A stretch of DNA of 64,000 nucleotides from an uncultured Alphaproteobacteria bacterium (GTDB lineage: Bacteria > Pseudomonadota > Alphaproteobacteria > Rhizobiales > Beijerinckiaceae). Numbering within the stretch: position 1 is the stretch's first letter; each line of letters begins with the position of its first letter. Shown piece after piece: positions 1-34,381 of the stretch. The position numbers were made by a program, and so were the translations under genes. The stretch covers positions 10,163-74,162 of the forward strand of contig CAVZKF010000023.1 in the NCBI GenBank assembly GCA_963775775.1, in the 5' to 3' direction. Under the pieces are notes generated by a model. The model was not told where the DNA came from and did not search any database. It was given only the letters and a program-made list of their open reading frames with translations.

Positions 1-123
1 TCTATAGCCGCGTAACCCGAAAAAGCTAAATCGGGGCGATTTGCACCTTACTTTCGAAGCGGCATAAGCGAGTTTCACCGCCATTCCGGGACGTGACCCG
101 GCCTTTCACGGGAATGGCAGGAA

Positions 124-405
124 ATGAATAACTCGCCTCAATATATGCGCCGCGACGCGGCGGCCCGCTACCTGAATGAGAAGTTCGGGTTCGGCAGCGT
201 GAGCTTGCTCGCCAAAGGGGTTGTTTCGGGAGATGGCCCCATATTCTTCAAGCGAGGCCATATTGTCCTCTACAAGCAGGAAGACCTTGACGAATATGCG
301 CTCGCAAAATTTCCCGGCCCGTTGCGTTCCACTCCGCCCGCGCCAGCCGCGAAGTCTTCGAAAAGACGCGGGCGCCCGTGCAAGGTCGTGGAAGCGCGCC
401 AATGA
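124..405 (+). CDS. Excisionase/AlpA-like helix-turn-helix DNA-binding protein
   Basis: YMRRDAAARYL...LAK...GDGPIFFKRGHIVLYKQEDLDEY matches the pattern of alphaproteobacterial excisionase-like proteins. Confidence 0.75.
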   Translation: MNNSPQYMRRDAAARYLNEKFGFGSVSLLAKGVVSGDGPIFFKRGHIVLYKQEDLDEYALAKFPGPLRSTPPAPAAKSSKRRGRPCKVVEARQ

Positions 406-833
406 AGCGGCGGCGGTCCATGACTGCAGAAACCAAAGCAAAAATAGCCGCTGGCGTTCGAAAGTATTGGGACACGCCCGATGCGCGTGGGCAAGCTTCC
501 GAACGAATGCGGCAGATTGCTTCACGTCCGCAGTTCCGTCAGCTCGTGTCCGAGCGAACGAAGGCGGCTATGGCCCGGCCGGAAGTGCGAGAGCGGGTCG
601 CTAACGTCGCGTCCAAATTTCGCGCGAAGATTTCTAAGGCAGTCCGCGCGGCGCTATCCACAACGGAGATGCGCGAAAAAATCTCACGCCGAACAAAGGA
701 AGGCATTGCCGCGCGCGCTGCAAGGCTCGCCGAGCTGCAAGCCTTGCGCACCGCGTGGGCGGCGGCGAGCGATATGGCGCGGCGATTGTTTATCGACGAA
801 GTGTCCGCGGGCGCCGATAGCGATGCAGGATGA
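402..833 (+). CDS. NUMOD3-like helically extended repeat DNA-binding protein
   Basis: Repeated (T/S)xETKAKI / REKISRRTK / VSERTKAAM motifs; ATGA overlap with the upstream stop. Confidence 0.55.
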   Translation: MKRRRSMTAETKAKIAAGVRKYWDTPDARGQASERMRQIASRPQFRQLVSERTKAAMARPEVRERVANVASKFRAKISKAVRAALSTTEMREKISRRTKEGIAARAARLAELQALRTAWAAASDMARRLFIDEVSAGADSDAG

Positions 834-1843
834 CCCCTACGCCTTCACCAAAAATTGGCTGGAATGCATCGCGTTCGATGACACGCTATCCCATGCCGCA
901 TGTCGGGTCGCCATCATGATTGCAATGCACCGCAACAGGGAGACGAGAGACGCTCGCGTCGGCCTCGACATGATCGCCGCCGAGGCGGGAATGACGAAAA
1001 AGGGCGCGCGCGGAATACTGCAAGCCTTGGCAAAGCGCGGTCTGCTTCGGGTATCACTGGGAGGCGGCGCTAAAAAAACCAATGTCTATTTGCCGATACT
1101 TCCAAACGGATATGTTCCACTGCTGAAACGGCCAGAGATGCGCGCCTAAAACTAGGAACGAGTGGCGACTGTTTGAATGGAGAAGCGGTCACCGGCGAGT
1201 TCCGCGAACGCTCACCGGCGGGTGACTGTTTCAACGGAGAAACGGTAACCGGCGGGTTCCAAAAACGGTCACCGGCGGGTGACCCGAACCCTTTATTAGA
1301 ACCCTTAAACCCCCAAAGCCCCCAGAAATCGAATGGTGAAGACGCCTCTTCGTCTTGGGAGGCGTTCACAGCGGTATGGCCGATCGGTCTCAATGAGCGG
1401 TGGCGGTCGGCCAAGAGGGCATTCAGTAAGCTAAGCGCGGAGGAGAGGCGACTGGCGATCGACAACGTGGGCAGCTACCTGAAGCGCTGTGCCGACCAAG
1501 GCAAAGCGCCTCTGAGCCGCAGGCAATGGAACCGCGAAAAAGGCTGGGGCTACAATTTCCCGGAGGCGAAAGCCGCAGCGCCGCAGTCGAAAGCGCCGGC
1601 CGCGCCCGGTGTTTGGGTTGACGAGACTCGCCTGAATGGCGCGCTTGGCTGAATGCCAAGGGCGTCAAATCACACCCACAAGACGCCAGGGGCGGCTGGC
1701 GCTTCCCGTCGAGACGGCCGCCAGGCCACGGCGGCGACGGCGGCGCGCTCGCCGGGACCGGCGAGAGCCTTCCCTTGGACGCCAGGGCGATCGGCGCGCC
1801 GCACGCCCTGGCTTCGACGGACGCTGGTCCGCCGCTGGCGTAG
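823..1843 (+). CDS. Replication-initiator-like protein 1 (N-terminal winged HTH), split by two frameshifts near 1140 and 1625
   Basis: LSHAACRVAIMIAMH...LDMIAAEAGMTKKGARGILQALAKRGLL...GGAKKTNVY; internal repeats; C-terminus WEAFTAVWP...SPEWRAW...GGWRFP, stop at 1841-1843. Confidence 0.6.
1167..1280 (+). repeat. 57-bp tandem duplication containing four 17-bp iteron-like repeats; putative origin of replication
   Basis: AACGGTCACCGGCGGGT variants at 1184, 1207, 1241 and 1264, followed by AT-richer CTTTATTAGAACCCTTAAAC. Confidence 0.75.
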
Positions 1844-1986
1844 GGCGCGCGCCTCGGCGGCCGTGGGTAGGGGGTTTAATTTGCGGCGAGATCAAAATCG
1901 CTGCAATCGGGCATACCCAAAGCCGCAGATTTTACGGGTTAAAAGTCGTCAAAAACAAATTTGATAACCTTCGGAAAGGCAGGCCG

Positions 1987-2472
1987 ATGATAATCAGTGG
2001 AAGACAAGCTCTCGCAGCTCGGCTGCTCCTGAAGATGGACAGGAATGACGTGTCTGCAAGAATTAATACACTCCAACGCATCCTTGGAAGCTTTGAATCC
2101 AAGGGCAGGCCGATGGGCGTCGGACGATTAGACATGCTGCAGGACTTTTTTGAGAATAACGGAATTGAATTTACTCTTGGAGGCGTCAAGATACGTGATT
2201 ATATTTCAAACGAGTCTATGGCTCCTACGCCGGAACAATGTCGCGCCGCAAGGGGACTTCTTGCCTGTTCTATGGAAAGGCTGGCGGCGCATGCTGGACT
2301 TTCGACCAGCGTAGTTTTTTGTTTGGAAAATGGCGGAAATCCTTCCAGAACCAGCGCCGCCAAGCTGTTGGGATTTTTCGACGCCGAGAAAATCGAGATG
2401 CTCCCCGGCGGCGCGCGCGACCTGGAACCCGAAAGATTTTCGATCTTTCGCGGCGGAAGGGCGCTGAAATGA
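1987..2472 (+). CDS. Protein with two tandem XRE-type HTH domains
   Basis: ISGRQALAARLLL...FENNGIEF and TPEQCRAARGLL...LENGG...EKIEM. Confidence 0.7.
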   Translation: MIISGRQALAARLLLKMDRNDVSARINTLQRILGSFESKGRPMGVGRLDMLQDFFENNGIEFTLGGVKIRDYISNESMAPTPEQCRAARGLLACSMERLAAHAGLSTSVVFCLENGGNPSRTSAAKLLGFFDAEKIEMLPGGARDLEPERFSIFRGGRALK

Positions 2473-2638
2473 CGCACGCCATGGGCGAAGCGCCGCCACG
2501 GAAAACCGCGCGTAACCGCGAAAGACGGAGCGCCGCGCTGGCCTCGACGAGGCAATCGCCGATCGCCGCGAGCGCGCCACCGGAAGCGGCGGCGGTCGAG
2601 GCAGTTTCGCGCCGCGTTATCGGCGAGGAGACGCTATC

Positions 2639-3122
2639 GTGACCCGCTCCGAGCGCGAAGAAAAATTGCGGGCCGCGCCGGAGGATGCGGCGAAGGAGTC
2701 GCCGATCGCCGCGAACTCGCCAGGCTGCGCCGACGATGAGGACGTTTCGTGGGCTGACGTGATGCTCATGATCCCGCCCCGCATCGCGCGAAAGTCCTGA
2801 ATGAGCTCTGTCGGCGCGCCCATGAAGCCACACAACTCGCCGCCGAGCTCGAAAGATTAACTCCACCACCGTCGCGCCCGCAGCGGATCGCCGCACGCGA
2901 TCGGGCGATCCGGCGCGCCGTGGCGGAACATTATCGCGACGCCCCTAAAACTGTCGCCGCAGGGGAGCTCGCCTTCGACTCAAGCTCTATGCGCAGGGCG
3001 AATTTCGCCATGGGAGGGAGCTTCCGAATGGCGCGTCGGCGCATCGACATGCCTTGCGTGAAATCTTGAAATTGAACAAAGGCAGCGCGTTGTCGAAGAG
3101 CTCAATTTGCGAGATCTTATAG
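2639..3122 (+). CDS. Hypothetical protein (frameshifted), possible transcriptional regulator
   Basis: Joined frames read ...RIAARDRAIRRAVAEHY...ALREILKLNKGSALSKSSICEIL*; not given as a single ORF in the track. Confidence 0.35.
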
Positions 3123-3217
3123 CCCGCGACGCCAGCAATTCCAGGCGATCCAGTTTTTTTTTGCAAAGCTGGATTCGATCGGCGCCATGCTCGAAACATC
3201 AATCACGGAGAGACGAC

Positions 3218-3919
3218 GTGACGCTGTTTTCGAAACTGTTTGGCGGCGCGAAAAAGACGCCCGAGGAGCTGGCGAATTTGCAGGAAGCCGGCGCCGCGCT
3301 GGAGGCGTTGCGCCAGGAACGCGCGGATGCTCGAAGGACGCTCGGCGAGCTCGTCCAGAAGCGCCGGTCCGCCCTGCTCGCCGACGAGTCGGACAAGCAA
3401 ATTCAGGCGCTCGACGCCGAGCATGATCGGCTGCTGCTCCTCCAAGAGCGTCTCGATGCGGCGGAGCCGCGCATTCTCGCGCGCATCGGCGAGCTACAAG
3501 GCAAGCAGCGGCGCGAACTGTTCGCCCAAATGCTGGGCGTATTTCGCGAGAAGGAATCCGCGCTCGACGCCGCGCTCGACGGCGCCGCCGACGCGCTCGA
3601 CGATTATCTCAACACGGTCCGACAATTCGATGTTGCGGGCTTTTCTGCGCAGGCGACGAGCGTTGTCATTCGGCCGCCCTTCATCGGCGTTGATGGCGTT
3701 GTAGCCTCCAAAAGTTTGCTGAGCAATGGCGCAGGGAGCGCGAGCGTGTCGCTGATAGACAAGCCGCCCTCGCCTCGGGACGCGAAATCGATCCGGTTCG
3801 CCCCGCTAAAAGTCGAGCATACCGTTCCGAAAGTCGCCTCCGCCGCCCGCGCCAATGTCAGTCAAGCGCGCGCCCAAGCGTTTGAGCGGCCCGGTCCCAT
3901 TCGGCTATCAGCGCGTTGA
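3218..3919 (+). CDS. Coiled-coil protein (true reading frame may extend to about 4100 through frameshifts)
   Basis: GGAG RBS, GTG start, long heptad-rich helical region. Confidence 0.6.
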   Translation: MTLFSKLFGGAKKTPEELANLQEAGAALEALRQERADARRTLGELVQKRRSALLADESDKQIQALDAEHDRLLLLQERLDAAEPRILARIGELQGKQRRELFAQMLGVFREKESALDAALDGAADALDDYLNTVRQFDVAGFSAQATSVVIRPPFIGVDGVVASKSLLSNGAGSASVSLIDKPPSPRDAKSIRFAPLKVEHTVPKVASAARANVSQARAQAFERPGPIRLSAR

Positions 3920-4066
3920 ATGCCAAATGAACAACGTCTCTTTCGAAGAAACAGATGTGCGTCATTGGTGATCAATTCGATGTCATGAAGGAAGTCGCCG
4001 ACTATGTGCTTCGTGGCGCGGCGTTCACCTTGGTCGCGTTCCCGAAAACGTCGATGACGCCGCCCA

Positions 4067-4348
4067 ATGAGCGCCTCGTCACCAAATCTCAACGTCATTC
4101 TCGGAACTGTAAAGGTGCAACGCCAATTATCGCCAATGCTTGACGGGGCGAATTTTCAGATGGGGCGGAGCGTGACGATCGGCGCGACGCCATATGCTGC
4201 GAAGCCCGCCGAAAGATTGGCCCGACGCTTGACGGCCAATCCGCAAACGATCGGGAGCGGAGTGTCGATAATCGTTTTCCAGGCGGAAGCCGCCGCCCTG
4301 GTCAATGCCGGCGCCGCGACGCTCGGCGCAATCGTCTCGAATGGATAG
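4067..4348 (+). CDS. Hypothetical phage-like small protein
   Basis: ORF in operon context ending in VFQAEAAALVNAGAAT. Confidence 0.45.
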   Translation: MSASSPNLNVILGTVKVQRQLSPMLDGANFQMGRSVTIGATPYAAKPAERLARRLTANPQTIGSGVSIIVFQAEAAALVNAGAATLGAIVSNG

Positions 4349-5035
4349 ATCGATGAAACTAGCTTCTTCTCAAAAATAATCGCAAAGGACGCGGGTTTAG
4401 GCCCCAGACAAATTCGCATCCGCGCGTCGGACACGACCGTAGATCGCGTGGGCGATGTTCTCGAGGCTTCCGGCGCTGATCTTTCGAACTACCGGAGGAA
4501 TCCGATTGTCCTTTTCAATCACGACCCCAGCCACCCAGTCGGAACGGCGAGCCTTAGCCGCAATGGCAATGCAATCGATGGCGTGATCACCTTTGCGCCT
4601 CAAGGCGCGAGTCAGAAATCGGACGAAGTTTGCGAATTGGCGAAAGCTGGCGTGTTGTCCGGCGTTTCGGTCGGATTTGATCCGATCGACGCGTCACCTT
4701 ATCCACTCGGTTTTCGCATTACAAAATGGGAGCTTCTCGAAGTAAGCCTGGTCGCAATTCCATGTAATCCTTCCGCGAGAGTTTTGGAGCGCAGATACGG
4801 ATCGTCGAGCCGCGCCGAGCGATTGGTCGAAATCGCCGAGCTCCGCGAAAGAGCTGGCCTTGGCTATCGCGACGCCACGCCGGCCGCGCCGTCCAAACTT
4901 ACGGAGCGGCAGAAGTTCATTCTCAACGAACACAATCGCGTGCTCGACATGAGCGCGCGTCTCTATGAACGCGACCCGGATGCGCAAAAAGCCGAGCGAA
5001 TTCGTGAAATCCGTAAACTGACTTCCGGATACTAG
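4349..5035 (+). CDS. HK97-family prohead protease with a C-terminal helical extension (start uncertain; ATG near 4353 is one base out of frame)
   Basis: DRVGDV, NPIVLFNHD, GVLSGVSVGF and WELLEVSLVAIPCNPSA motifs. Confidence 0.9.
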   Translation: MDETSFFSKIIAKDAGLGPRQIRIRASDTTVDRVGDVLEASGADLSNYRRNPIVLFNHDPSHPVGTASLSRNGNAIDGVITFAPQGASQKSDEVCELAKAGVLSGVSVGFDPIDASPYPLGFRITKWELLEVSLVAIPCNPSARVLERRYGSSSRAERLVEIAELRERAGLGYRDATPAAPSKLTERQKFILNEHNRVLDMSARLYERDPDAQKAERIREIRKLTSGY

Positions 5036-5036
5036 C

Positions 5037-5267
5037 ATGGCCGCGCCGCGCTCGATGTTCACGCCAGCGCTGGAACTCGCGGCCGTTATGGCGACGGGAG
5101 ACGGTCGCGCGATCCATGAAAAGATGCGCGAACTTGCGAGAAGCGAGCGGGCGTTTCTGCTTGGCGCTGGCTACGATGAGGCGGCGGCGAAATTTCTCGC
5201 GATATGTGGGATCGCGATGATCCAGGACGCGGCGAAGAAGCTCAATTGCGTGGCGGGCATCGAATGA
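5037..5267 (+). CDS. Hypothetical protein
   Basis: 76-aa ORF starting 1 bp after the protease stop. Confidence 0.5.
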   Translation: MAAPRSMFTPALELAAVMATGDGRAIHEKMRELARSERAFLLGAGYDEAAAKFLAICGIAMIQDAAKKLNCVAGIE

Positions 5268-5386
5268 GTTTCGCGCGGTTTTTCCATGGCCGCGCGGGAT
5301 GGGGAGCGGCGAAGGGCGGGGCGAGGGGCGATTGACCGACATGGCGAACTCCTCGCCCCATTCAACTTGAAACAGGAAAGAGAACC

Positions 5387-7851
5387 ATGTCGGAGAGTGC
5401 TGTCACAATTCGGTTCGGCGCGGACGTTAGTGGCCTTGACAGCGCCGTCGCCGTCGCGAAGGCCCAGCTCGCCGGCTTCAATGCCGAAATCCGCAAGCTC
5501 GCCAAGGAAGCCGCCGCGACCGGCGGGACGGTCAGCGACGATCTCGCCAAGGCGCTCCGCGAAGCTTCGGCCGGCGCGGCCGGCCTGCAGTGCGAGTTGA
5601 AGTCGCTCACGGCGAAGCCGATTATTGAGGTCGAGTCCGCCGCGAAACACTTTAACAAGCAACTCGACAACATCGCGGCCTTCGCCTGGAACAATACGAG
5701 CCTTTTCGGGAACGAAATCGAGCGAGTGGTCAATCCATTGAAGGGACTCGCCTCGACGATTGGCGTGGTTCCGACAGTGGCGACGGCGGCGGCGGCGGCC
5801 ATTGGATTTCTAGCCTATAAGACCGGATCGTTCGCGCATGATCAGCTAACGGAATTGGCTGACGCGGCGAAGCAATCCGGCATTTCCTCCACCGCGGTTC
5901 AAGGCGCGAAAATCGTCGGCGCCGGCGCTGGCGTCGACTTTGACGCGATGGTCGCCGCTCTCAAGGCGGCGAATGAAGAGTTCCAGAAGTTCAAGCGGAA
6001 CGATGGCGATTTAAAGGACGCGCTCGACAAGATCGACAAAGGCTTTTTGAAGGTTCTCGACGGCGCGAAAACCACTGGCGAGTTCATAGACCTGGTTGGG
6101 CAAAAGATCAGAGCCCTCCCGAAAGAAGAGGGAATCGACCTCGCCAAGGCGCTGTTCGATGATGCGACCGGCGAGAAGCTGTTCGAGCCGATCATCAACG
6201 GCCAGCTTGAAATGAAAAAGCTCGGCGACACCGCGCGCGCCGCCGGAACGGCGATCGACGAAGGCGTCGTCAAGGGCGCGCGCGACGCCAAATTCGAAAT
6301 CGATGCGGCGGCCGAAAAAGCAAATCAGCGTCTCCTCGTCGCGCTGGAGGGCCTCGCCGCGCCAGTCGCGGCCATGAAGCTCGAATTTTACAAGGCATCA
6401 GAAGCGATAGTCCAAGCGTCGCTTAACACGTCGGCATTCGTGTCGCAGCTGCATCAGGCGCTCGACCAATCGCGCCAGATCGCGCGCGAAATCCAGGAGC
6501 ACTCGACCAAAGGCGTCCCATTCAAACAAGCCTTCGCGCGCGAGCTCTCCGAGGGCAAGTCCCCGACCGGGAACGCCAAGCTTCCCGATCTCGATATCGG
6601 CTTAAATGCCGGATCGTCCCGCGCGCGCTACGAGGCGCGGGACAAGGACGACGACAAAAAAGAAAAAGGGCGCGAAGGACAAATCCAATGGCGACGCGCT
6701 CGCCGCCGCGCGCACAGAAATCGATGGCGAAATCCAGGCCGTCCTGCAGCAAACCGAAATCAACAAGGCGCAATACGAGCTCGACTTCGCCAACAAGAAA
6801 ATCACCGAGGACGAGAAAAGCCGCCTCGTTAAGCAGGCGGACGAACAGCAGTTCGAGGCGACCAAATCGCTCTACGAGCGCGAGGCGGCCATCGCCGGCC
6901 AGAAGCCCCAGCAACGTCAGGTGATCAATAACAAGATCGAAGCGCTCGAATCGCAGCATCAAGTGAAGATGCTCGAGCTGGCGACCAAGGAAGTCCAGGA
7001 CGCGGCGAAACTTGCCCACGAGAGGCGCCCAGCAGTTCGCCGGCACGCTCACGTCGTCGCTTTCGCAAGCGCTGATCGGCGCGGTCGAGCACACGCGCAC
7101 GAAGAACGCGGGTAAAAAACTCGCGCAATCGCTGTTTTCCGAACTCACAAATGAGTTCATGAAGAACACATTGACGGATCCTCTGGAGAAGGCGCTTGAG
7201 CCTGGTTTCAAGGCAATGGGCGACTTAATCACGTTGCCATTCCAAGACGCGATCAAGAATGCGCTCGGCGCGGTTGGCGGCGGCCTTTCTGGCGTGCTCG
7301 GGGCGACGGCTGGCGCTGCGGGCTGCGGCGCTGGGGCTGCGGCGCTGTCCACGGCTGGCCTTGGCTTGTCATCGTCAGCGGCGGAACTGACCACGTCGGC
7401 GGCGGCGCTGTCATCGGCGGCGGCCGCGATCGGCGCTGGGGGCGCTGCCGCGGGCGCTGGAGGAGCCGCGGCGGCCGGCGGCGGCGGACTGCTCGCCGGC
7501 CTCGGCGGACTGCTCAAGGCGGTGCTTCCGGGATTCGACATCGGCTCCTGGCAGGTCCCATCGCTCGGCAACTTCGACGGCAAGGGCGGTTTCCCCGCGC
7601 TGGTACACCCCGGCGAGATGATTATCCCCGCCGGTCCAGCGGGCGCACTGCGCCAAGCGGGCGCGTCTGGCGCCTCCAAATCCGCGAGCGCGCCCGGTCC
7701 CGTGGTGCACGCGCCGACCAATGTCAGCATCACCGCGATGGACGCCCGGAGCGTAGCGCGCGCGTTCAATAGCAATGATCGGGAGTTGTTCAAGGCGATC
7801 GGCCGCGCGGCCCAGCGCGGCGCGCATCTCGGCATCAAGGGACTGTCGTGA
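5387..7851 (+). CDS. Tail tape-measure-like protein of about 820 aa, frameshifted near 6660 and 7015
   Basis: N-terminal VTIRFGADVSGL, Ala/Gly-rich helical body, C-terminal GFDIG...ALVHPGEMIIPA...TNVSITAMDARS typical of tape measure ends. Confidence 0.75.
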
Positions 7852-7852
7852 C

Positions 7853-8230
7853 ATGAGCGAACAAAAGACGCAGGGTGCGTCATTCGAGGAGCTTTGCGCG
7901 GCGTTGCGCGGACGCCTGCGATCCTCTGGGTTTTGCAAGGAAGCCGCCGACGCCATCATGACGGCCGCGCGATCAAGCGTCGACTGGACGACCGCCGAGC
8001 CGCCCTACCTTGTCCCGCCGATGGCGCTGTCGGCGCTTCAAGCGCCGCGCAGCACCTGGAGCCGACGCTGCGCCGACGCGCGCGAAGTGATCGTGCGCCT
8101 GGAGGCGAACATTCATCATATGAATTACGGGTTCGGGCCGCCGCTCGGCGTGAAGGCAGCGCGGCCTGATTGGTTGCGCCCGATCGACGGCGGGAAGTCC
8201 TCCCCGCGTGGAGGCAATAACGACGAATAG
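7853..8230 (+). CDS. Hypothetical protein
   Basis: ATG 1 bp after the tape-measure stop. Confidence 0.45.
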   Translation: MSEQKTQGASFEELCAALRGRLRSSGFCKEAADAIMTAARSSVDWTTAEPPYLVPPMALSALQAPRSTWSRRCADAREVIVRLEANIHHMNYGFGPPLGVKAARPDWLRPIDGGKSSPRGGNNDE

Positions 8231-8244
8231 CTCCTTCTTAGAGT

Positions 8245-8649
8245 TTAAGACGGCTTGCTCCGCTCTGCCGCCAGGGTCTGTAAAATATTGGCTAAATCGC
8301 GTCCCCCTTGTGCAAGTCGCTTATTGTCAATTTGGAAAGTCAGAGCGAAGCCGCCAATTTGAACTGAAAGAAGAGATTTGTTTGGGTCCGGGCCTCCGGC
8401 AAGACGAAGCCCGTCCGCTGAAATTGGTAACACCGACTCTGTCATTCCCAATAATGATGCAGATGGATTGAGCGCAGCGGCTTGGCCCGCCGTCTGCGCT
8501 ATAGCCCCGATCCAGTTCGATACGTCATCGAAATTCAGAGCGACATCTAGAGTTTCTCCATCGCCGCGTTCAATGCGGAAGGCGATACCGCGAAAGCCAT
8601 CCGCTCCGGCAAAACTGGAGAGAATGGCTCTATCTTTATCATCGATCAT
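8245..8649 (-). CDS. Hypothetical protein translationally coupled to the XRE repressor
   Basis: ATGA overlap with the XRE stop; lower GC than its neighbours. Confidence 0.6.
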   Translation of the reverse strand: MIDDKDRAILSSFAGADGFRGIAFRIERGDGETLDVALNFDDVSNWIGAIAQTAGQAAALNPSASLLGMTESVLPISADGLRLAGGPDPNKSLLSVQIGGFALTFQIDNKRLAQGGRDLANILQTLAAERSKPS

Positions 8650-8888
8650 TGCTCGCCCTTCCTCAACCTCACGCCCGCCCCGCCGCCGTTCTCGGCGATG
8701 AACTCGACGCCGGCCCGTTCGAGGGCGGCGCGGATCGCGGCGACATTGTTCGCCGAAGGAACTCGACGCCCCTTTTCGAAATCTCTCACCGTGCTCTCGC
8801 TCAGATTTGAGTGAGAAGCGAGCTGAGTCTGTGACCAATCGAGGAGGCCCCGCGCCGCGCGGGATTGTTCTGGCGATAGCGTTTTCAA
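8646..8888 (-). CDS. XRE-family transcriptional repressor
   Basis: SPEQSRAARGLLDWSQTQLA...TVRDFEKGRR...ALERAGVEFIAENGGGAGVRL; TTG start inferred. Confidence 0.9.
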   Translation of the reverse strand: MKTLSPEQSRAARGLLDWSQTQLASHSNLSESTVRDFEKGRRVPSANNVAAIRAALERAGVEFIAENGGGAGVRLRKGEQ

Positions 8889-8967
8889 CGGGAAGCGTTC
8901 CTTATAAACGGAAACCGTTGACAAGGGCGTAATCAACGGTTAGCGTCACAATTACACGGTTTTCGTG
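8887..8967. promoter_or_regulatory. Divergent switch: four ACG-N5-CGT operators overlapping a sigma70-type promoter
   Basis: ACG-N5-CGT at 8888, 8908, 8936 and 8956; TTGACA(8918-8923)-N17-TAGCGT(8941-8946). Confidence 0.75.
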
Positions 8968-9046
8968 AATTTCCTAGCCCAAAGCCAACGCAAAAAGCCT
9001 TGCGGTTTATGCGAACGCTCCCGGCTTGCCTGAAAACGAGGCTCCC

Positions 9047-9169
9047 ATGTCTGGACCCGCCGTCGTCGCAACATTTCTCGCCGTTTCGTTTTTCTTGATT
9101 ACGCTGGCTTGGGCCGTCGCTCACGCCGTCGAGGTGCGCGCCATCGCCAAGCCACGGGGGCGGCGATGA
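9047..9169 (+). CDS. 40-aa single-transmembrane peptide (below the ORF track threshold)
   Basis: GAGG RBS; MSGPAVVATFLAVSFFLITLAWAVAHAVEVRAIAKPRGRR; ATGA overlap with the next gene. Confidence 0.6.
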   Translation: MSGPAVVATFLAVSFFLITLAWAVAHAVEVRAIAKPRGRR

Positions 9170-10015
9170 GTGGGCTCTGGTTTCGCGTATATGACCAGGC
9201 GCTCGACGATCCGCTCCTCCAGCGCCTCCCGTCTTCTCTTTTTCGCGCATGGTTCAACGTCCTATGCGCGGCGTCTCGCCACGGCGGCACACTTCCCGAT
9301 CTCGCCGCGCTGGCGTTCATGCTGCGCACGCGCCCTGGCGCGCTATCTCGCCGTCTGGAGGCGTTGAAGGCCGCGGGCCTCATTGAGGAAGTGGAGGGCG
9401 AGCTGCGCCCCGTCGAGTGGGAGAAGCGGCAATTTGCCGATCGACCCGCCGACCCCACGGCCGCCGAGCGGATGCGCCGCTTTCGGGAGCGCGCCGCCGA
9501 GCGTAACGGAGCCGTAACGCCGACCGTAACGAACGCGCCCATAGAAGAAGACGAAGATTTAGACCAAGACTCTCAAACCGCGCCGGCGGCGCGCGAGAGC
9601 GCGATCGACGATCATGCGGAGGAATTTCTTCGCGTCTTTCCTCGGCGTGACGGCGACCATCCGCGCGCGGCCCACGCTGGCCGCGTTCCGACAGGCCGTC
9701 GCGGCGGGCGCCGACCCCGCGCGGATCATCGCCGGGGCGAAGGCTTATGCGGCTTCCGTCGCCGGCCGCGAGCGGCGCTTCGTCGTATCGGCTGCGCGAT
9801 GGCTCGCCGAGGAAAGATGGCCGCAAGCCGCGCCGGCTCCCGGCGCGAACGCGCCGCGCGTCGCTACTGTTTGGATTTCCGCGACCTCGCCGGAATGGTC
9901 CGACTACGCCGATCGCTACCGCGCCGCCAAAGGCAGGAGTCCACCCGTCGACGCGAATGGCGGTTGGCGCTTTTCGCCGCAATGTCCCACCGCGCCGCTC
10001 GAACAAGCGGCGTAA
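9166..10015 (+). CDS. Replication-initiator/replisome-organiser-like protein 2 (frameshift near 9665)
   Basis: WFRVYDQALDDP..QRLP..LFRAWFNVLC, WEKRQF..DPTAAERMRRFRER, CGTAACG repeats at 9502, 9513 and 9525, SAARWLAEERW. Confidence 0.7.
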
Positions 10016-10037
10016 CCTCAAGCAGAAAGGAAACAAG

Positions 10038-10409
10038 ATGGAAAACCAAATCTCACGCCGCGTCGTTGCGGCCGGCCTCGTGCTGGCCCCTGTCGCCGGG
10101 ATTCCCGCCGTCGCTGGCGCGCCAATATCCGACGCGCTGGCGGGAGCCATGGAACGTCATCGGGCCGCTAACGCTATCGTTGAGGCGCATTTGGGTCCAG
10201 AGGACGTTCCCGAGCATCTTGTTGACGCCGAAACCGAGGCCTTGTGGGAACTGGCCATCACGCCATGCGCCAATGACCGCGAGCTGTTAGTGAAGCTTGG
10301 CTATCTTCTTGCTCATGAGAAGGCCTGCACGGCCGGTGGCGTCTTCTCTTTAAGCAGCCACGGTTCGCTTCCGATCGCTCTCGATTTTCATTTTAACCCG
10401 CAGGCGTGA
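10038..10409 (+). CDS. Hypothetical protein with a twin-arginine-like N-terminus
   Basis: AGGA RBS; ISRRVVAAGLVLAPVAG. Confidence 0.6.
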   Translation: MENQISRRVVAAGLVLAPVAGIPAVAGAPISDALAGAMERHRAANAIVEAHLGPEDVPEHLVDAETEALWELAITPCANDRELLVKLGYLLAHEKACTAGGVFSLSSHGSLPIALDFHFNPQA

Positions 10410-10792
10410 CCATGGAAACCAAAGCTGAAGATCGCGCCGCCGAATGCCCTGCCGTGGTGGCGCGCGCCATCCCGAGTGGCGACGATGATGCGTCTAGATG
10501 CGCTTCCGGTATCGGCCATTTGCTTGCCGAATGGCTCGCGCTTTGCGACGCCTTCAACGCCGCCGAACCCGTCCCCTTTGCGCTGCGCAGGGAGTTGGAT
10601 GATTTGGAATGGCGCATAATCGAGACCCCGGCGGCGAACATGGCCGAATTGTTACTCAAAGGGCGCGTCGCGAAATCTTGGTTCGACGATCGCCGAGCGC
10701 CAGCTTATTTTGCCGGGGAGAAGCTTGCCGCTGACGCGGCGCGACTGCTGAATTCTTGGGGTAGCGCCATGCTCGATTGCTCGGAGCGGTAA
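10406..10792 (+). CDS. Hypothetical protein
   Basis: Overlaps the upstream stop; shares a TPxxNxxELLxK motif with the upstream ORF. Confidence 0.55.
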   Translation: MTMETKAEDRAAECPAVVARAIPSGDDDASRCASGIGHLLAEWLALCDAFNAAEPVPFALRRELDDLEWRIIETPAANMAELLLKGRVAKSWFDDRRAPAYFAGEKLAADAARLLNSWGSAMLDCSER

Positions 10793-11252
10793 TATAGCGA
10801 TTGCCGAGCGCCCATCCCTGGGAAGGCTTGCGCCCGCGAATCGACTCGCTTATTCTTTGAGCAAGCGAACGGTTGCACAACCAGACGCCACGAAGCGGCC
10901 CGACCTCGGATGAACAGGCGGGCCGTTTTTGCGTTTGCGGCGCGCGACGATCAAAATCGCGGCCTGTTACTTTGATCGAAATCGCAGGCAGCTATTCCGA
11001 AACTCGCCGCCGCTGCGCGAGATTGCGGAAAAAGGCGAGCGCGAGCGCGGGCGGCGACCGAAAATCACGATCGCGCGACGCTATCGTGAAGCTCGCAGCT
11101 GCTGCGCGAGACGGCGCAGATCGTCGATCGGAGCGACGAGCCGTTTTTTTTCGGTTCGGCTCCCGCATGCTTCCCGGTGCTCCCTGGAGAAAAAGCGCTA
11201 GGCCTGGCAGCGACAGCCGGCCAGCTATTTCCCTTATTTTCAATGAGATATT

Positions 11253-11328
11253 TGGTGGAGCTGCGGGGAATCGAACCCCGGACCTCTGCAGTGCGATTGC
11301 AGCGCTCTCCCATCTGAGCTACAGCCCC
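11253..11328 (-). tRNA. tRNA-Ala(CGC)
   Basis: GGGGCTGTAGCTCAGATGGGAGAGCGCTGCAATCGCACTGCAGAGGTCCGGGGTTCGATTCCCCGCAGCTCCACCA; 76 nt, G3:U70 pair, encoded CCA. Confidence 0.97.
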
Positions 11329-28536: not shown

Positions 28537-29634
28537 GCGTCGACGATCTGAAAATGCGTCCGGGCGAACTGGCCTGTATCTGCGGCTCGACCGAAGGCGG
28601 CGACGACGCGCTCGATGCGCACGATCTCGGACGCCTCGCCGCCGGCTTTGGCCTTTCGGCGCTGGCGCAGGCTCTGGTGCTCACCACCTTGCCCGAGGCG
28701 AGCCGCATCTCTCGCCCCAACGCTCGACCGGCTCGGCTGGCCCTATGCGCTGCTGCTGGTCGGCGCCGCGCTCGCGACCTTTCCGGCCGCGTTTCTGATC
28801 GACGCCTTCGGGCGGCGCTCCGCCTTCGCGCTGGGCGCCAGTCTTGGCGTCGGGGGCGGATTGCTCACGGCCTTCGCGGCGTCGCGCGGAAATTTCTCCG
28901 CGTTGTGCCTTGGCGCCTTCTGGCTTGGGCTCGCTCAGGGCTTCGCCCTGTTTTATCGCCACATAGCGGCGCGCGGCTCGGCTCTGGCGACGCGCGCGGG
29001 GCTCGTGGTTCTGGCCGGCGGGGCGGTGGCGGCGGGCGGAGCGCCGGCGTTGATCCGCTTCGGCGCGCTGTTCGGCGAGGGCGTCGGACCATTGCTGATC
29101 ATCGCCGCCGCGCTGCACGCGCTCGCCTTGTGGCTGGCGACCCGCCTGCCGCATGCGATAGCCCCGATAAGATTGGAGGCGCGCCCCGTCGCCGCCTCGT
29201 CGTGGCGTTTTGTCGCCGCGACGCTCGGCGGCGCGCTGGGCTGGTTCCTGATGGCGGCCGGGATGTTGCACGGACCGTTGCAACTATCGCTATGCCAGGC
29301 GTCGCGCGGTTTTATCGGCGCGGCGATGGCGTGGCATCTGCTCGCAATGTATGGCCCGGCGGCGCTCGCCGCGCGCTGGCCGAAGCTGGCGCCGTCCGCC
29401 CTGTCCATGCTCGGCGGGCTGGCGGCGATGCTGATGGCGCTGGGCGCCGTGCGCGCCGGGACGAGCGTTTTCAGCGTGACGGCGGCGATGATGGTCATCG
29501 GGGGAGGCTGGTCCCTGGTCAATGTCGGCGCGATGCGCCTGCTGCATGATAAGGGCCGTCCGCCGCGATTGGCGCTCGCGTTGCACGATCTTTGTCTGCT
29601 GGGCGCCGCGGCGGCTGGGGCGCTGGCGCTTTAG
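28533..29634 (+). CDS. MFS-like membrane protein (frameshift near 28712)
   Basis: DAFGRRSAF motif, many TM segments, WHLLAMYGP. Confidence 0.7.
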
Positions 29635-30077
29635 GCGGCGGTCGGGGCCACGCCGTCGAGGCGCGTCTCGCGAATTATCCGATGCCGAGGAACTTCTTCG
29701 CCGGAACAAGATTGTCGCCGAATTCCTTGAAAAAACGAACGAATTGGGCGCGTTCCGTCACCGACAGGCCGACATCGGCGTCGCGAGAAAAGGGGATGTT
29801 GGAGGCGTCCAATTTGGCCAATGTTCCAGACGCCAGCGCGGGAATTCAATTTCGACGCCGCCGCCACAGAGGAGCCGCGCGCGGGTCTTTCCGCTGGTTT
29901 TTAGTTCGCGCCGCATCGCTATCGCTCGCCCCGCGCGGGCTTTTGACGGCGCGGGGCGGGGGCGCCGCCATTTTGGACGGCGCACGATCGGCGCGCGGTT
30001 CATCGCGCTGTTGCGGCGGCCGCCTCCACCATCTACAGCGTGACGTATTCCGTTGACGCGCGGATGTCGGACGAAAG

Positions 30078-31607
30078 ATGGAGACGATGAGCGTGGCCCC
30101 AAAGACAATTTCACCCGATGCCGACGCCGGCGCGAGCGGGTCAGTGAACGCCGATTGGCTTATGTTTGTGTTGTATGCGGCATATATAGTAGCGGCCTTT
30201 TTTGTTTATGAGGTTTCAAGCATTGGCTCTCCAGTCTGTTTCAGTGATTGCTTTGAATATATAGAATTGATGCAGGCAAGTGGAGGCGAATTCTTCCATA
30301 CCCTGTATACGATGTTCAGGCCTTGGGCCGTGCCGACCTTTTTCTCCCTGTTCGGCGCCTTCGAAATTTCGAGCGCCGCGCGCATCGTGCTCGCTCAAAC
30401 CTATATCGCGTTTTTGTCGTGGCTTTTGTTCGCCTATGCCTGCCAGGGAATGTTCGCGACGCGCGCGCTGAAATTCGTCGGATTCGTCCTGCTTTCCAGT
30501 CTCATGTTTGGTCAGGGCTACTATCATTTCAATCAGTTCCTGCTGTCCGACTCGCTGGCGATGTCGTCGGTTCTGATGCAATATGCGCTGGTTTTCCTGT
30601 TTCCCCGCTTCGCGAATTTTTGCGAGAAAGCCGATCACGGCAGAACTTACATCGTTCTATATTTGGCCGTGATTTTTATTGTCACCGCGTTCGAGATGGC
30701 GACCCGCGACGCCAACATCATGCTGGGCTTGTCTGGGGTCGCCTTTTTGTTCTTCGCCAATCGCAAGGGCGTGATTGGCGACGAGGCGCGGTGGATTCAC
30801 GTGATGTTCGTCTTCGTCGCGGCGTTCGGTCAATCCTGGGCCGCCCGGATGCGCCATCCCGTGAACGCGAGAAATATCTTGGCGGGAGCGGTGTTCGCCA
30901 ACGAAGACATGCGGGATTTCTTTTCAAAACATGGCATGCCGGCCAGTTTCGACGCGGCCGCCGCTGGAGCGAAGCCGCAAAGCCTGGACGCGGTCGACAT
31001 CGGTGAAGTCGACGAAGTCAAGAAGAAGATCGCGAGCGCCGAGCAGGGGGCCGAGGAAAAGAAGTTTCTCGGCGGGGTTGGAGGCGTTTACGCGTTGTAT
31101 TTCTTGACGCATCCGGCGTATGTGGTCGACAATGTCGCGCGCCACTGGCGCCTGATTTTCGCTCAGAGCGTGGACCTGGAGGCGACGATCGAGCGCGGCG
31201 GCTTCGCGAAGCCAGGCGCGCGAAAATTCGTACGTCTCGGCGAGACGACGCCCTTCATCGCGGGCGCATCGACGAAGCTCTCCGCGGGGGACTATATCCC
31301 GCCCGTCGTCGGGGTCATTCTTCTGGCGCTGTGCGCGCTGCCACCGCTGATGCGTCCCCGCGAGATGTGGTCCTTCGCGCCGCTGTTCCTCGCGGCGATG
31401 GGCCTCGTCAACGCCATCCTTGGCTTCTTCGGCGACGTTTGGGAGAGAAGCGAAATGGAGCGGCACGCCTTTGTCGGCAGCATGGTCCTGAGGCTGGGGC
31501 TGATGTTGTGCCTGCTGCGTCTGATCGAGGAGGCGCGCCGGCGCTGGACGCCCCCGAGCTGGCGTCCGCGTCCTGACGCACGAACCGGCCGCGCCTCACC
31601 CGTCTGA
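30078..31607 (+). CDS. Polytopic membrane protein, GT-C/PMT-like glycosyltransferase
   Basis: SDCFEY...FRPWAVP loop after TM1, LLSDSL motif, about 10 TM segments. Confidence 0.5.
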   Translation: METMSVAPKTISPDADAGASGSVNADWLMFVLYAAYIVAAFFVYEVSSIGSPVCFSDCFEYIELMQASGGEFFHTLYTMFRPWAVPTFFSLFGAFEISSAARIVLAQTYIAFLSWLLFAYACQGMFATRALKFVGFVLLSSLMFGQGYYHFNQFLLSDSLAMSSVLMQYALVFLFPRFANFCEKADHGRTYIVLYLAVIFIVTAFEMATRDANIMLGLSGVAFLFFANRKGVIGDEARWIHVMFVFVAAFGQSWAARMRHPVNARNILAGAVFANEDMRDFFSKHGMPASFDAAAAGAKPQSLDAVDIGEVDEVKKKIASAEQGAEEKKFLGGVGGVYALYFLTHPAYVVDNVARHWRLIFAQSVDLEATIERGGFAKPGARKFVRLGETTPFIAGASTKLSAGDYIPPVVGVILLALCALPPLMRPREMWSFAPLFLAAMGLVNAILGFFGDVWERSEMERHAFVGSMVLRLGLMLCLLRLIEEARRRWTPPSWRPRPDARTGRASPV

Positions 31608-31963
31608 TCCGCTCCGGCGAGGTCAATTCCTCGATGTATTCGCGCGGACGGGTCGGGGTTCGTTACAATGCCGTTGGCCTAAGCGAGTTTCGCGGCGGGA
31701 GTGGCGCCGATCCCACGCCTCGATCCCGCGCTTCACGGCGACGCGAAGCAGGCCGACGATGCTTAAGGTGGCGGAATTCGATGAGTTTGACGGCCTTGCG
31801 CGGGATTTGCGCGGCGCGCTGCTTTTGCAAAATTGGCGATTTGCCCTGGACGGCGGCGTCTCCGCGCGATTCTTCGTGCCGGCCAGGTCGCTCGCCGTCG
31901 AGGACTATTTCTCATGTTTACACTCCATGATTACAGCGTATCGAGCGAAGATAGCCAAATCCT

Positions 31964-33646
31964 TCACCAGAACGGCTTGTGCACGGACTTCAATTCGGCG
32001 AGTTCCGACGCAGAAAGACTCCCAATTCGATGCGAATAGTAATAGCGTAGAGCATTAATTCTTACCTCCGAAAGCAAGGGCTCCCGCGTAATCGCGCACA
32101 TAACAAAATAGAGCTGCTCAAGATACCCATCTTGCCAAGCCGTTGTCTTCTGCAAAGCATAGTCCTGCGCAAGCCGCTCTTGGTCTATAGAACTGTAACG
32201 TGGCTCCAAAGCAGCTTTCTCCATGCGAAGATATTCCACCGGAATTGGCTTTTTAACGTGACCAACATTGGAAGACGGATCAAAATAGGGAATTCTCGCA
32301 GTGAATGGATCACTGATAAATGCCCAGTGCGCCATCAGGAACTTTGTGTCATGATCTGAATAACATTCTTCACTTGCTGAATTGTCAATATAAAATGTCA
32401 TGCGAATTGGAGCGCAATCTTTTATTCTGAATATGTCGCCCCATGAACTGGGCATGCGATTAGCAATCCATTCTCTATCACGATATATCTTCCATTCATT
32501 CGCAATCCATCTACCTTGAATTTGGCCCACGCCAACATACTCCGGAGCATTAAAGCCCTTAATGAAGTCGTATGGAAGCGCGAACAAAAGGAACACGACG
32601 GGCAGAACCGAAACAGATTTTAACTGCCCGGCATGTTTCGACAAAGACAAGCTGAAAAGATAAGCGCAGGACACCCATAAAACAAACATCGCCGAGGCAA
32701 GAAATCGTCCGCGCATAAAATCTCCACCAATTGCAACACAATATATTAGCTGAAGAGCAACACCCATTAATAAAACAATCGCCGCGACGAATGACTTGTT
32801 ATTCATAAGTACTTGGGAGTCGCCCTTCAACGCGATATACGACTTGTATAGGACGTACAAAGGAACAATCACGTGCGTTGGCTCTGTGACAATATAGTCA
32901 AATATATAATGTAGGCCTCTCTGCTGCAGCGCCGCCAGCTGAACCAATTTTGCGTATGCCGTATTTGGAAACAGGAACCCATAGTAAATAAACGAGATGC
33001 CTTCCCATATAACCAGTGGCAGCAATCCTAAAAAGGCGCTGCCGACTCTGCTTCCAAGTCTTCTTTGATCGAAGCGGTCGGTCAGCAAGGCAGCGAGAGC
33101 AAGTGGCGCTATCAAAAAAACATGATCCAATCTATTTACAAGTAAAAATCCAATAGCCAACCATCCGCGTTGAGGGTAGCCCATAGAAAATGCCAAAACT
33201 GAACAGCATATAAGAAAATTTGTCAATGAGTTTTCTAGCCCAAACGTCTGAAACTGGACAAAGACGAACGAGGTTGCGCAAAACGCCGCAAGGGATATGA
33301 AAGCGATCAAACCGTAATCGCCGGCATCCCTTAAATACCTATATACCACGTATAATAGCGCTGCTGTAAGTATTATTCCTAATATAATGCTCCAATAATA
33401 GCCTTTGAGGCCGAGCGAAACCCCCGCCGCCAGCAATAAAAACCACAGCGGGTGCGTGTAAACCATCACGCGCTCGTCGGTGTTGTACCTCGCGCCGAAC
33501 CCGTCCACAAAATTGTTTACCGTTCTAATTGTCATATAAGCATCATCGCTTGACCAGGCGAGCCCGCAGACAAGTAACAAACAAAGGCACGCGGAAACCC
33601 AACACCAGAACTCAATAGATAATCTGATGCTCAAAATCGAGTTCAT
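31964..33646 (-). CDS. AftB-like GT-C glycosyltransferase, low GC
   Basis: SDDAYMTIRTVNNFVDGFGARYNTDERVMVYTHPLW, YYGFLFPNTAYAK, GGDFMRGRF. Confidence 0.75.
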   Translation of the reverse strand: MNSILSIRLSIEFWCWVSACLCLLLVCGLAWSSDDAYMTIRTVNNFVDGFGARYNTDERVMVYTHPLWFLLLAAGVSLGLKGYYWSIILGIILTAALLYVVYRYLRDAGDYGLIAFISLAAFCATSFVFVQFQTFGLENSLTNFLICCSVLAFSMGYPQRGWLAIGFLLVNRLDHVFLIAPLALAALLTDRFDQRRLGSRVGSAFLGLLPLVIWEGISFIYYGFLFPNTAYAKLVQLAALQQRGLHYIFDYIVTEPTHVIVPLYVLYKSYIALKGDSQVLMNNKSFVAAIVLLMGVALQLIYCVAIGGDFMRGRFLASAMFVLWVSCAYLFSLSLSKHAGQLKSVSVLPVVFLLFALPYDFIKGFNAPEYVGVGQIQGRWIANEWKIYRDREWIANRMPSSWGDIFRIKDCAPIRMTFYIDNSASEECYSDHDTKFLMAHWAFISDPFTARIPYFDPSSNVGHVKKPIPVEYLRMEKAALEPRYSSIDQERLAQDYALQKTTAWQDGYLEQLYFVMCAITREPLLSEVRINALRYYYSHRIGSLSASELAELKSVHKPFW

Positions 33647-33732
33647 TTCAGTTTTCCGCTCTTTGCGTTCATTTTTTGCCGAGGTGAGGTTGTCCCGACA
33701 TGTCGCCGAAATATTATCAAGCAGCGAGCTGG

Positions 33733-34235: not shown

Positions 34236-34381
34236 CATTCCGTTCGGCGAAAGATTCACACAGGCGATAGCCTGAAGATGTTCAACCGCTCGGGCCATAC
34301 ACGGAATTCGTGATAGTCCCGCAGCCTTCCTCCAGATAATTCCACCGCCGCGGCCCGAAAATCCCGAAACCGCCCCGCCAC

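Follow-up and report, generated by a model that had tools for sequence, protein, structure and literature searches.

A probable decayed member of a recurrent family of capsid-less, tRNA-integrated elements in methanotroph-type Alphaproteobacteria

To our knowledge, tail genes are rare in phage satellites, and the sole precedent that we found is a preprint on the EPIPs. These satellites of Mycolicibacterium aichiense carry a tape measure protein (TMP) gene and a small terminase gene, lack most virion genes, and encode a serine integrase as well as a head-to-tail adaptor, a stopper and a scaffold; according to a proposal of the authors, the TMP alters the tails that these satellites hijack (preprint, December 2025, PMC12822802). 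In SatelliteFinder, tail (and holin) genes are forbidden components for PICIs (PMC10085698). Since satellite detection excludes on tail genes, elements of the kind described here would be systematically missed.

The window analysed is a 64,000-nt stretch of contig C23 in the genome of a methanotroph-type alphaproteobacterial genus, a MAG that is 84% complete with 3.75% contamination. From the DNA letters alone, an earlier note had read its first 11.3 kb as a tRNA-Ala-integrated, compact and translationally coupled gene set, and as a candidate helper-dependent satellite of a new type. The integration at tRNA-Ala was borne out. The upstream flank, which the earlier note had proposed to recover, contains a tyrosine integrase (Pfam Phage_integrase and Arm-DNA-bind_3) and, adjoining it, a second copy of the tRNA 3′ end, perfect over 48 bp (contig C23 7965-8012 against window 11253-11300, 48/48 identity). 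With this distal att copy 2.2 kb outside the left edge of the window (window −2197 to −2150), both boundaries of a genuine element are exactly placed; it measures 13,450 bp, of which the window holds the right-hand 11.3 kb, and it is present once in the assembly. The identity of the att copies suggests that the insertion is not very old. In an Rfam scan the tRNA alone was found. Taken together, the window copy is probably a decayed member of a recurrent capsid-less, tRNA-integrated family, the intact members of which are most likely satellites of siphophages of the type found in genome G003 of the same genus.

Table 1. Features of the element within the window (window coordinates).
Feature	Position	Strand	Evidence
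Excisionase-like ORF, 93 aa, apparently intact	124..405	+	42-44% identity to xis ORFs of relatives L080 and L090
Rep1, N-terminal winged-helix part	748..1149	+	phrog_270 replication initiation protein, E 2.6e-6; 34% identity to G072 Rep N-terminus
57-bp x2.1 tandem repeat, iteron-like sub-repeats, candidate origin	1164..1283	.	
ORF with Rep C-terminal motif, frame differs from Rep1	1173..1652	+	
p180 pseudogene, conserved family core gene	2723..3116	+	homology to intact p165/p174 across frames 2, 1, 3
Coiled-coil core gene (family marker), C-terminal third frameshifted	3218..4067	+	single-frame 299-319-aa homologues
p97 homologue, 93 aa, open ORF	4067..4348	+	hhalign against p97 alignment: probability 97.8%, E 7.6e-13
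Short-form HK97-type prohead protease, body single-frame, native start lost	4349..5035	+	Pfam Peptidase_S78 E 1.7e-8; PHROG 80/617
76-aa ORF between protease and TMP	5037..5267	+	same position as p86/p117 of relatives
Tape measure pseudogene, frames 2 to 3 to 1	5387..7851	+	PHROG 58/8125; homologous to 917-aa G003 TMP
XRE-type regulator, 96 aa, intact	8646..8936	-	PHROG repressor families; 53-54% identity to XRE of G474 and G057 elements
Second Rep/DnaD-like gene (Rep2), frameshifted	8993..10021	+	phrog_10469, phrog_270
Conserved tRNA-proximal ORF, signal-like N-terminus	10038..10397	+	50% identity to L090 2413-2799 (G057 element)
attR, 48-bp direct repeat inside tRNA 3′ end	11253..11300	.	partner at C23 7965-8012
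tRNA-Ala(CGC), integration target	11253..11328	-	ARAGORN

The neighbouring genes named in the earlier note (xis-like gene, rep gene with repeats, XRE regulator and coiled-coil protein) are all present, and its "NUMOD3-like" ORF (378-833) was without Pfam or PHROG support. The window xis-like ORF gave no Pfam match; its counterpart in the relative G470 matches HTH_17 (E 1.6e-10). The ORF with the Rep C-terminal motif may represent either a separate gene or the C-terminal half of Rep1 detached by a frameshift, and window positions 1628-1720 match the C-terminal Rep2 homologue of G474 at 65%. For the p97 homologue, the pairwise comparison by itself was not significant, and the 76-aa ORF had no family match in Pfam or PHROG and no detectable similarity to p86/p117.

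The prohead protease was confirmed, with 35.2 bits against a curated Peptidase_S78 cut-off of 21. It is a full-length short form of about 228 codons, which aligns to residues 5-239 of 240-aa homologues and corresponds over its whole length to proteases of 225-255 aa in other capsid-less elements. Its NHD and GVSVGF-type segments, which we take from general knowledge of the family to be the catalytic His and Ser motifs, are conserved in comparison with the G003 protease. The tape measure assignment stood as regards homology, but the gene is a pseudogene with broken frames: residues 3-77 of the G003 TMP (the N-terminal part) correspond to window 5390-5614 in frame 2, residues 561-650 to 6690-6959 in frame 3 and residues 810-915 to 7519-7848 in frame 1. 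For its middle part (5729-6640, frame 2), the match is with intact TMPs of 695-788 aa in relatives, and the intact element TMPs match Pfam TMP_2 (E 7e-19). As the earlier note had stated, the element shows no gene for capsid, portal, large terminase, tube or lysis: comparison of more than 20 ORFs with Pfam and PHROG gave none, and tblastn with all G003 phage proteins and HMM searches of the whole genome in six frames agreed and found no fragments of these genes. A small terminase (TerS) homologue was not found in the window copy. The claim that protease and TMP are the only virion genes is incomplete: both are there, and a conserved p180/coiled-coil/p97 module lies alongside.

The picture of a compact, translationally coupled gene set did not hold, as most of the conserved genes are frame-broken, with at least 13 frame breaks relative to intact homologues. 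Compared with an intact homologue that is 64% identical over the catalytic part, the integrase switches frame about five times within 500 bp (frames 2, 1, 3, 2, 1, 2) and contains in-frame stops; its open frame spans 273 aa, versus 430-520 aa in the homologues of the genus. Two breaks each were found in the p180 gene and in Rep2 (window frames 2, 1, 2 versus a single frame in G006), and at least one in the coiled-coil gene, which runs in frame 2 to 3727 and then in frames 1/3 to 4067, its HMM match being split and containing two TGA. In the protease, a 1-nt deletion at codon 4 leaves the ATG at 4353 out of frame, with 8 codons followed by TAA. The frame of the protease body opens past a TAG (4346-4348), and its first canonical start is a GTG at 4448; because the start codon is lost, expression of the window protease appears doubtful. 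The TMP is frameshifted twice, the first time within 6641-6689, where A6 and A5 runs occur. Neutral evolution of both genes, named in the earlier note as an argument against its own proposal, is what the three-frame TMP and the out-of-frame protease ATG display. The perfect att sites, the open xis, p97 and XRE ORFs, the single-frame protease body with its conserved motifs and the satellite-like architecture of the family would fit a working satellite that depends on a helper and brings protease and tape measure of its own, a reading made very improbable by the integrase with its frame switches and stops, the TMP in three frames, the lost protease start, the broken p180, coiled-coil and Rep2 genes and the undetected TerS.

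Core genes served as controls. Both rpoB and rpoC are intact, without stops (open frames of 1419 and 1406 aa), and the genome holds 28 ORFs of at least 1000 aa; its coding density is 78% (mean 306 aa), compared with 49% for the element. Since rpoB, rpoC and the genome-wide ORF statistics are normal, the window copy itself appears to be decayed. A short synteny control against G474 comprised one 354-aa gene in a single frame. Other phage-like regions of the genome are frame-broken as well (TMP and portal in C31, tail genes in C15), which is compatible with decay or with mobile DNA having been assembled less well in places. Between the two C15 copies, substitutions outweigh gaps (424 mismatches versus 33 gaps), which points to real divergence. 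Because the genome is a MAG, some indels in the window copy could be consensus errors, and the frame changes in C31 and C15 and the TMP shift within A6/A5 runs would suit such an origin. That errors of the metagenome consensus explain the frame breaks as a whole, with the element intact in the real organism, is nevertheless improbable: the core genes are clean, there is no second element copy in the assembly to cause cross-polishing, the C15 differences are mostly not gaps, the protease deletion lies outside a homopolymer, and five integrase switches in 500 bp plus stops are above usual error rates.

The same gene order without capsid recurs within the genus in 13-16.5 kb tRNA-integrated elements in which the genes are intact. 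The recurrent layout consists of integrase, xis, replication genes, small terminase, p180, coiled-coil protein, optionally p97 plus short protease, optionally the tape measure gene, cargo and XRE. This order is kept in G474, G470, G056 (four times), G072, G057 and G049, and partly in G461. Three relatives are bounded (13,374, 13,065 and 16,518 bp) by tRNA direct repeats of 49-66 bp at tRNA-Ala, -Thr and -Gly sites, and no capsid, portal or TerL gene was detected inside them. The pair of protease and TMP does not define the family, as members carry either gene or both: G474 and G056 have the protease only, G072, G057 and G049 the TMP only, and the window copy and G470 both. Small terminase matches were found in four relatives (phrog_57, E 3e-27, 8e-19 and 4e-8; phrog_83, E 3e-10), and none was identified in G474 or G470. 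The replication genes of the relatives include a P4-type primase, Toprim and AAA_25 helicase, or SSB.

The coiled-coil marker was present in 18 of the 78 genomes of the genus, with about 30 of 38 loci uninterrupted, and its family has 398 cluster representatives in a 1.84-billion-protein library. A protease search at the level of the order gave 3/401 genomes and a coiled-coil search at the level of the class 0/396, both from an even draw with few scored candidates and denoting rarity, not absence. A scan of genome contigs with the protease returned only two remote matches, and a word-based homologue search only 3 proteins. In G472:C7, an apparent "long protease" beside the coiled-coil gene proved to be fused to a piece of an integrase and does not belong to a complete phage. 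Selection was argued from ORF integrity across divergent copies because synonymous sites are saturated (available pairs share 35-60% protein identity). Judged by its genes, the architecture of the family is satellite-like, and the family is apparently undescribed so far. The intact members are most likely phage satellites of G003-type siphophages, going by gene content and size only. The idea of a helper-dependent satellite was therefore partly right for the family, with its intact genes, TerS and shared layout, but wrong for the window copy with its broken genes.

The G003 prophage is complete (TerL, portal, protease, MCP, adaptor, tube, TMP and tail block), with a virion module of about 20 kb in which protease and TMP are 8 kb apart and the TMP occupies its canonical site between the tail chaperones and the distal tail protein. 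Tail modules related to the G003 type also occur in the window's own genome (C31 and C15). The G003 protease domain is 54% identical to the window protease and the TMP 37-63% identical to that of the window, with an N-terminus that shares 63% with the window and 79% with the G470 element. An ordinary cryptic prophage remnant, that is, a G003-type siphophage at tRNA-Ala that lost about 7.5 kb between protease and TMP plus other structural genes and is now decaying, would account for these matches and for the pseudogenes. However, the G003 protease is a long form of 458 aa, and the window protease is no stump of it but full length when measured against the capsid-less elements. Moreover, coiled-coil gene, protease and TMP are also adjacent in G470, the bounded G474 element, whose integrase is intact, has the entire integrase-to-tRNA layout, and the missing genes left no fragments, which together make a prophage remnant unlikely. 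Unlike the element family, the G003 phage has neither p180 nor coiled-coil genes.

For the p180 model (pLDDT 81) no match was obtained at E ≤ 0.1 in PDB or BFVD, and for the coiled-coil model (pLDDT 69.6) the matches were generic helical hairpins only (Z ≤ 11). In the ESM Atlas, Psu was the named cluster nearest to the coiled-coil protein (0.80, a score that the tool rates as a lead only); the lead was not backed by a PDB profile search. Because neither the p180 nor the coiled-coil protein can be assigned to a fold or family, a capsid role for them is a guess.

On the most probable reading, the element entered the tRNA-Ala 3′ end by tyrosine-integrase recombination. In intact members, TerS would redirect packaging to the element, the p180/coiled-coil/protease module may work on helper procapsids, and the element TMP, with an N-terminus 63-79% identical to the helper-type TMP, would be loaded into helper tails. 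In the window copy, the frame disruptions would then have cost the element its integrase, p180, coiled-coil gene, protease start, TMP and Rep2, leaving a non-functional fossil stuck at its att site. More tentatively, the intact relatives could form an undescribed satellite family, missed by current finders, in methanotroph-type Alphaproteobacteria that remodels both ends of the hijacked siphophage particle, with TerS, p180, coiled-coil protein and short protease acting on packaging and head and the satellite TMP on the tail; we hold this to be possible, at somewhat less than even chances.

The locus is first of all a correction, as a tidy-looking "new satellite" appears to be a pseudogenised fossil that is unfit as a type example. 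It leads, however, to intact satellite-like relatives with a tape measure and/or prohead protease gene and no capsid, which are worth studying. If they are satellites, G474-, G057- and G072-type strains together with G003-type phages would offer a tractable system in ecologically important methane oxidisers.

Like satellite P4, which remodels helper capsids with small proteins of its own, the elements are integrative; they differ in replication and regulation genes, and no Pfam or PHROG match to the P4 Psu-Delta-Sid proteins or alpha primase was seen in the ORFs. With the cf-PICIs the family shares two genes, those for an HK97-type prohead protease and a small terminase, whereas cf-PICIs also encode a major capsid protein, portal and head-tail connectors, none of which was found here by Pfam, PHROG, tblastn or six-frame HMM searches.

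The resemblance to PICIs (including SaPIs and Gram-negative PICIs) extends to a size of about 13-16 kb, a tyrosine integrase with a fixed att site (here 48-66-bp repeats around 13.1-16.5-kb elements, the window integrase being a pseudogene), xis/AlpA-type genes (HTH_17 xis in G470) and own replication genes, either Rep with iterons, as in the window, or primase/helicase. PICIs also have a small terminase beside a small morphogenesis-like operon, as do the four relatives with TerS matches; none was detected in the window copy, G474 or G470. Capsid, portal, large terminase, tail tube and lysis genes are lacking in both. In contrast to PICIs, the window copy, G470, G072, G057 and G049 carry a tape measure gene; p180, the coiled-coil protein and p97 are unlike CpmA/B, Ppi, Rpp and Rcm, and the host belongs to an alphaproteobacterial methanotroph-type genus.

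For a TMP within a satellite, the EPIPs are by now a precedent (PMC12822802). The present elements nonetheless fall outside the EPIP class, with a tyrosine recombinase as integrase, no adaptor or stopper matches and a host of another phylum, a separation made by description only. TMPs encoded by satellites are a very recent finding, made in mycobacteria; a second, unrelated lineage in Alphaproteobacteria would, if confirmed, point to TMP replacement as a general strategy of tail hijacking. Both the EPIPs and this family are small, combine a TMP with a small terminase and dispense with most virion genes.

Contig C23, of which the window spans positions 10163-74162, extends 10.2 kb leftward beyond it, and there the 3′ end of the tRNA-Ala gene is duplicated perfectly over 48 bp at contig positions 7965-8012 (window −2197 to −2150). 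A tyrosine integrase gene (Pfam Arm-DNA-bind_3, E 3e-15; Phage_integrase, E 3e-16) directly follows this distal repeat. Both features that the earlier note had proposed to look for upstream were thus recovered, and together they give an element length of 13,450 bp, of which the window contains the right-hand 11.3 kb. Capsid and terminase genes directly to the left, named in that note as evidence against a satellite, are absent; an IS630-type transposase and chromosomal genes are found there instead. Just beyond the distal attachment site are the transposase (DDE_3 and HTH domains), at 6103-7167 (−) of the extracted locus L001, and a gene for a DUF4062 protein, at 5025-5525 (+). The closest intact integrase (locus L022, 18-560 and 640-2121, on G007:C29) also abuts a sequence resembling a tRNA 3′ end, and the left flank of this locus has its homolog in the sequence to the left of the distal attachment site of the window element, which hints that a related site in G007 is occupied by a different element. 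Near the tRNA-proximal end, a non-coding stretch of ~100 bp (window 10837-10946) recurs with 77-91% identity in G006, G014, G024, G013, G016 and on contig C36 of the window's own genome, G000. It had no Rfam match and may represent either a small RNA or a conserved site at the element end.

We ran Pfam and PHROG searches on more than 20 ORFs of the element, which contains two Rep/DnaD-like genes and XRE regulators in addition to the features listed in the table. None of these ORFs matched capsid, portal, large terminase, tail tube or lysis families. When the full set of 38 ORFs from a related complete prophage was compared to the element by tblastn, only the protease and the tape measure protein (TMP) gave matches, and six-frame HMM searches, run genome-wide with Phage_capsid, Phage_portal and PHROG large terminase (TerL) profiles, detected nothing on contig C23. 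The claim that the element has no recognisable capsid, portal, terminase, tail tube or lysis genes therefore holds. One XRE gene, at 8646-8936 (−), includes a ~100-bp core (window 8657-8754) that occurs with 73-95% DNA identity at many sites in almost all genomes of the genus, with as many as 6 or more copies in a single genome, and also on contigs C25, C35 and C36 of G000. This core appears to represent a very widespread multi-copy regulator family tied to mobile elements.

Features of the window copy of the element (window coordinates)
Feature	Position	Strand	Evidence
57-bp tandem repeat, 2.1 copies, with iteron-like sub-repeats	1164-1283		
p97 homolog, 93-aa ORF	4067-4348		hhalign 97.8%
Peptidase_S78 prohead protease	4349-5035		Pfam/PHROG
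Tape measure protein, weak matches	5387-6832		Pfam/PHROG
tRNA-Ala(CGC), sole tRNA in the window	11253-11328	-	ARAGORN

A complete siphophage block in G003, from the same genus, encodes TerL, portal, a 458-aa protease, major capsid protein, adaptor, tail completion protein, a tube-like gene, a 917-aa TMP and a distal tail protein. On comparison with this block, it first seemed that 7.5 kb had been lost between protease and TMP, which would make the window copy the stump of a prophage. However, short-form proteases (225-255 aa) from G056, G470 and G474 could be aligned end-to-end with the window protease (residues 5-239 of 240), and each of them has the same ~300-aa coiled-coil gene upstream. 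In G474 the entire arrangement lies within a 13,374-bp element in the same tRNA-Ala, with a 52-bp direct repeat and an intact integrase of 433 aa; its right flank is syntenic. The G470 locus reads int, xis, p165 (the counterpart of the conserved family gene p180), coiled-coil, protease and TMP N-terminus; the TMP piece, at which the contig terminates, shares 79% identity with its G003 counterpart. As the short protease is full length and the layout recurs in G474 and G470, a simple prophage stump was rejected.

The window copy carries at least 13 disruptions within 13.4 kb. The TMP, a single frame in G003, is spread in the window over frame 2 (residues 3-77, 63%), frame 3 (561-650, 49%) and frame 1 (810-915, 37%), the first shift falling within 6641-6689, where A6 and A5 runs are located. 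The protease body aligned from homolog residue 5; relative to it, the ATG at 4353 is shifted by one base and runs into a TAA after eight codons, and the frame of the body opens past the TAG at 4346-4348, with GTG 4448 as its first canonical start. Compared to the intact G007 homolog (64% identical in the catalytic part), the integrase runs through frames 2, 1, 3, 2, 1 and 2 with in-frame stops, and its open frame is 273 aa as opposed to 430-520 aa in homologs of the genus. The second Rep gene occupies frames 2, 1 and 2 but a single frame in G006, p180 occupies frames 2, 1 and 3, and the coiled-coil gene departs from frame 2 past 3727.

These breaks most likely reflect real decay of mobile DNA; that they are local consensus errors of the assembly (44 contigs, 2.59 Mb) we consider improbable. 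The rpoB (1419-aa open frame) and rpoC (1406 aa) genes have zero stops, and 28 ORFs of at least 1000 aa are present in the genome. In a crude codon-usage gene call the coding fraction was 78% genome-wide (mean 306 aa) and 49% in the element. A second copy of the element was not found in the assembly. Two other phage-like regions, on C31 and C15, are likewise frame-broken, and the mobile DNA of G000 is either broadly decayed or made up of strain variants. The C31 prophage (38.5-57.9 kb) has its TMP and portal split over frames. At its two ends (1-6572 and 29001-36868), C15 carries a G003-like tail module as an inverted pair, the copies of which are 92.7% identical and differ by 424 mismatches versus 33 gaps; such a substitution-dominated difference looks like real divergence. 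Two pmoA/amoA-type genes (PF02461, E about 1e-108; C12:72652-73353 and C10:114425-115129) and a G+C content of 63-64% suggest that the host is a methanotroph-type alphaproteobacterium.

The window copy is a decayed member of a family, and it is this family, rather than the copy itself, that is of interest. The coiled-coil profile matched 398 cluster representatives in a library of 1.84 billion proteins (188 at E <= 1e-10) and, within the genus, 18 of 78 genomes, several of which have 5-9 copies, while in a class-level sample none of 396 evenly drawn genomes was matched. About 30 of the 38 coiled-coil loci gave a stop-free match. Mapping reference proteins onto 20 loci revealed a consistent order: int, xis, replication genes, small terminase (TerS), p180 and coiled-coil, then p97 and protease in some members, TMP and a small ORF in some, cargo and XRE. 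The replication genes are Rep, a P4-type primase, Toprim plus AAA_25 helicase, SSB or Pol A; cargo includes MT-A70 methyltransferases and HicAB. In relatives, TerS matched phrog_57 (E 3e-27, 8e-19 and 4e-8) and phrog_83 (E 3e-10), and intact TMPs of 695-788 aa matched Pfam TMP_2 (E 7e-19) and many PHROG TMP families. Two further relatives could be bounded, one in tRNA-Gly (16,518 bp, 49-bp repeat) and one in tRNA-Thr (13,065 bp, 66-bp repeat), and neither had a capsid, portal or TerL gene among its remaining larger ORFs.

G056 (C116, C150, C106, C71, C54, C146, C149 and C133), G472 and G057 contain 5-9 marker copies each on separate contigs, with integrases and replication genes that differ between copies, a pattern that resembles a swarm of related elements within a single host or a single bin. 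In the G474 element (L045 13830-15993), an MT-A70-type DNA methyltransferase and a 365-aa phrog_25593 protein lie between the protease module and XRE, together with a HicA/HicB-like pair assigned from sequence inspection alone. In G472:C7, a 515-aa ORF (L079 5421-6968) fuses the protease domain with an integrase fragment (phrog_1, residues 252-463); this locus is a rearranged family member.

Integration at tRNA 3′ ends, the conserved order, intact TerS, protease and TMP in relatives and the lack of capsid, portal and TerL are all observed at the level of the family. From these sequence features, it is probable that intact members exploit G003-type siphophages in the manner of PICI-type satellites. 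The helper packaging motor would be diverted by TerS, p180, coiled-coil, p97 and protease may act on helper procapsids, and the TMP, with an N-terminus 63-79% identical to that of the phage TMP, could join helper tails through this helper-like part. The coiled-coil protein was modelled with long helices, a disordered proline-rich linker and a small C-terminal domain, and resembles a scaffold in predicted shape only. The G003-like tail modules in G000 indicate that a helper-type phage was once present there. The window copy is now incapable of any of these steps. The observation in the earlier note is confirmed in part, and its idea of a helper-dependent element with its own protease and TMP finds partial support in the family, the copy on which it was based being a fossil.

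Compared to known satellites, the family departs from the PICI model (PMC10085698) in carrying a tail gene, the TMP, and agrees with it in most other tested features. It does not belong to the cf-PICIs, since it is without capsid, portal and connectors. EPIP satellites of Mycolicibacterium, described in a December 2025 preprint, encode a TMP and have altered tails; according to this preprint, no other satellite was known to have a TMP, save for a proposal for PLE11 (PMC12822802). EPIPs belong to another phylum and differ from the family in integrase type and gene set, but with them the idea of a satellite TMP already has a recent precedent.
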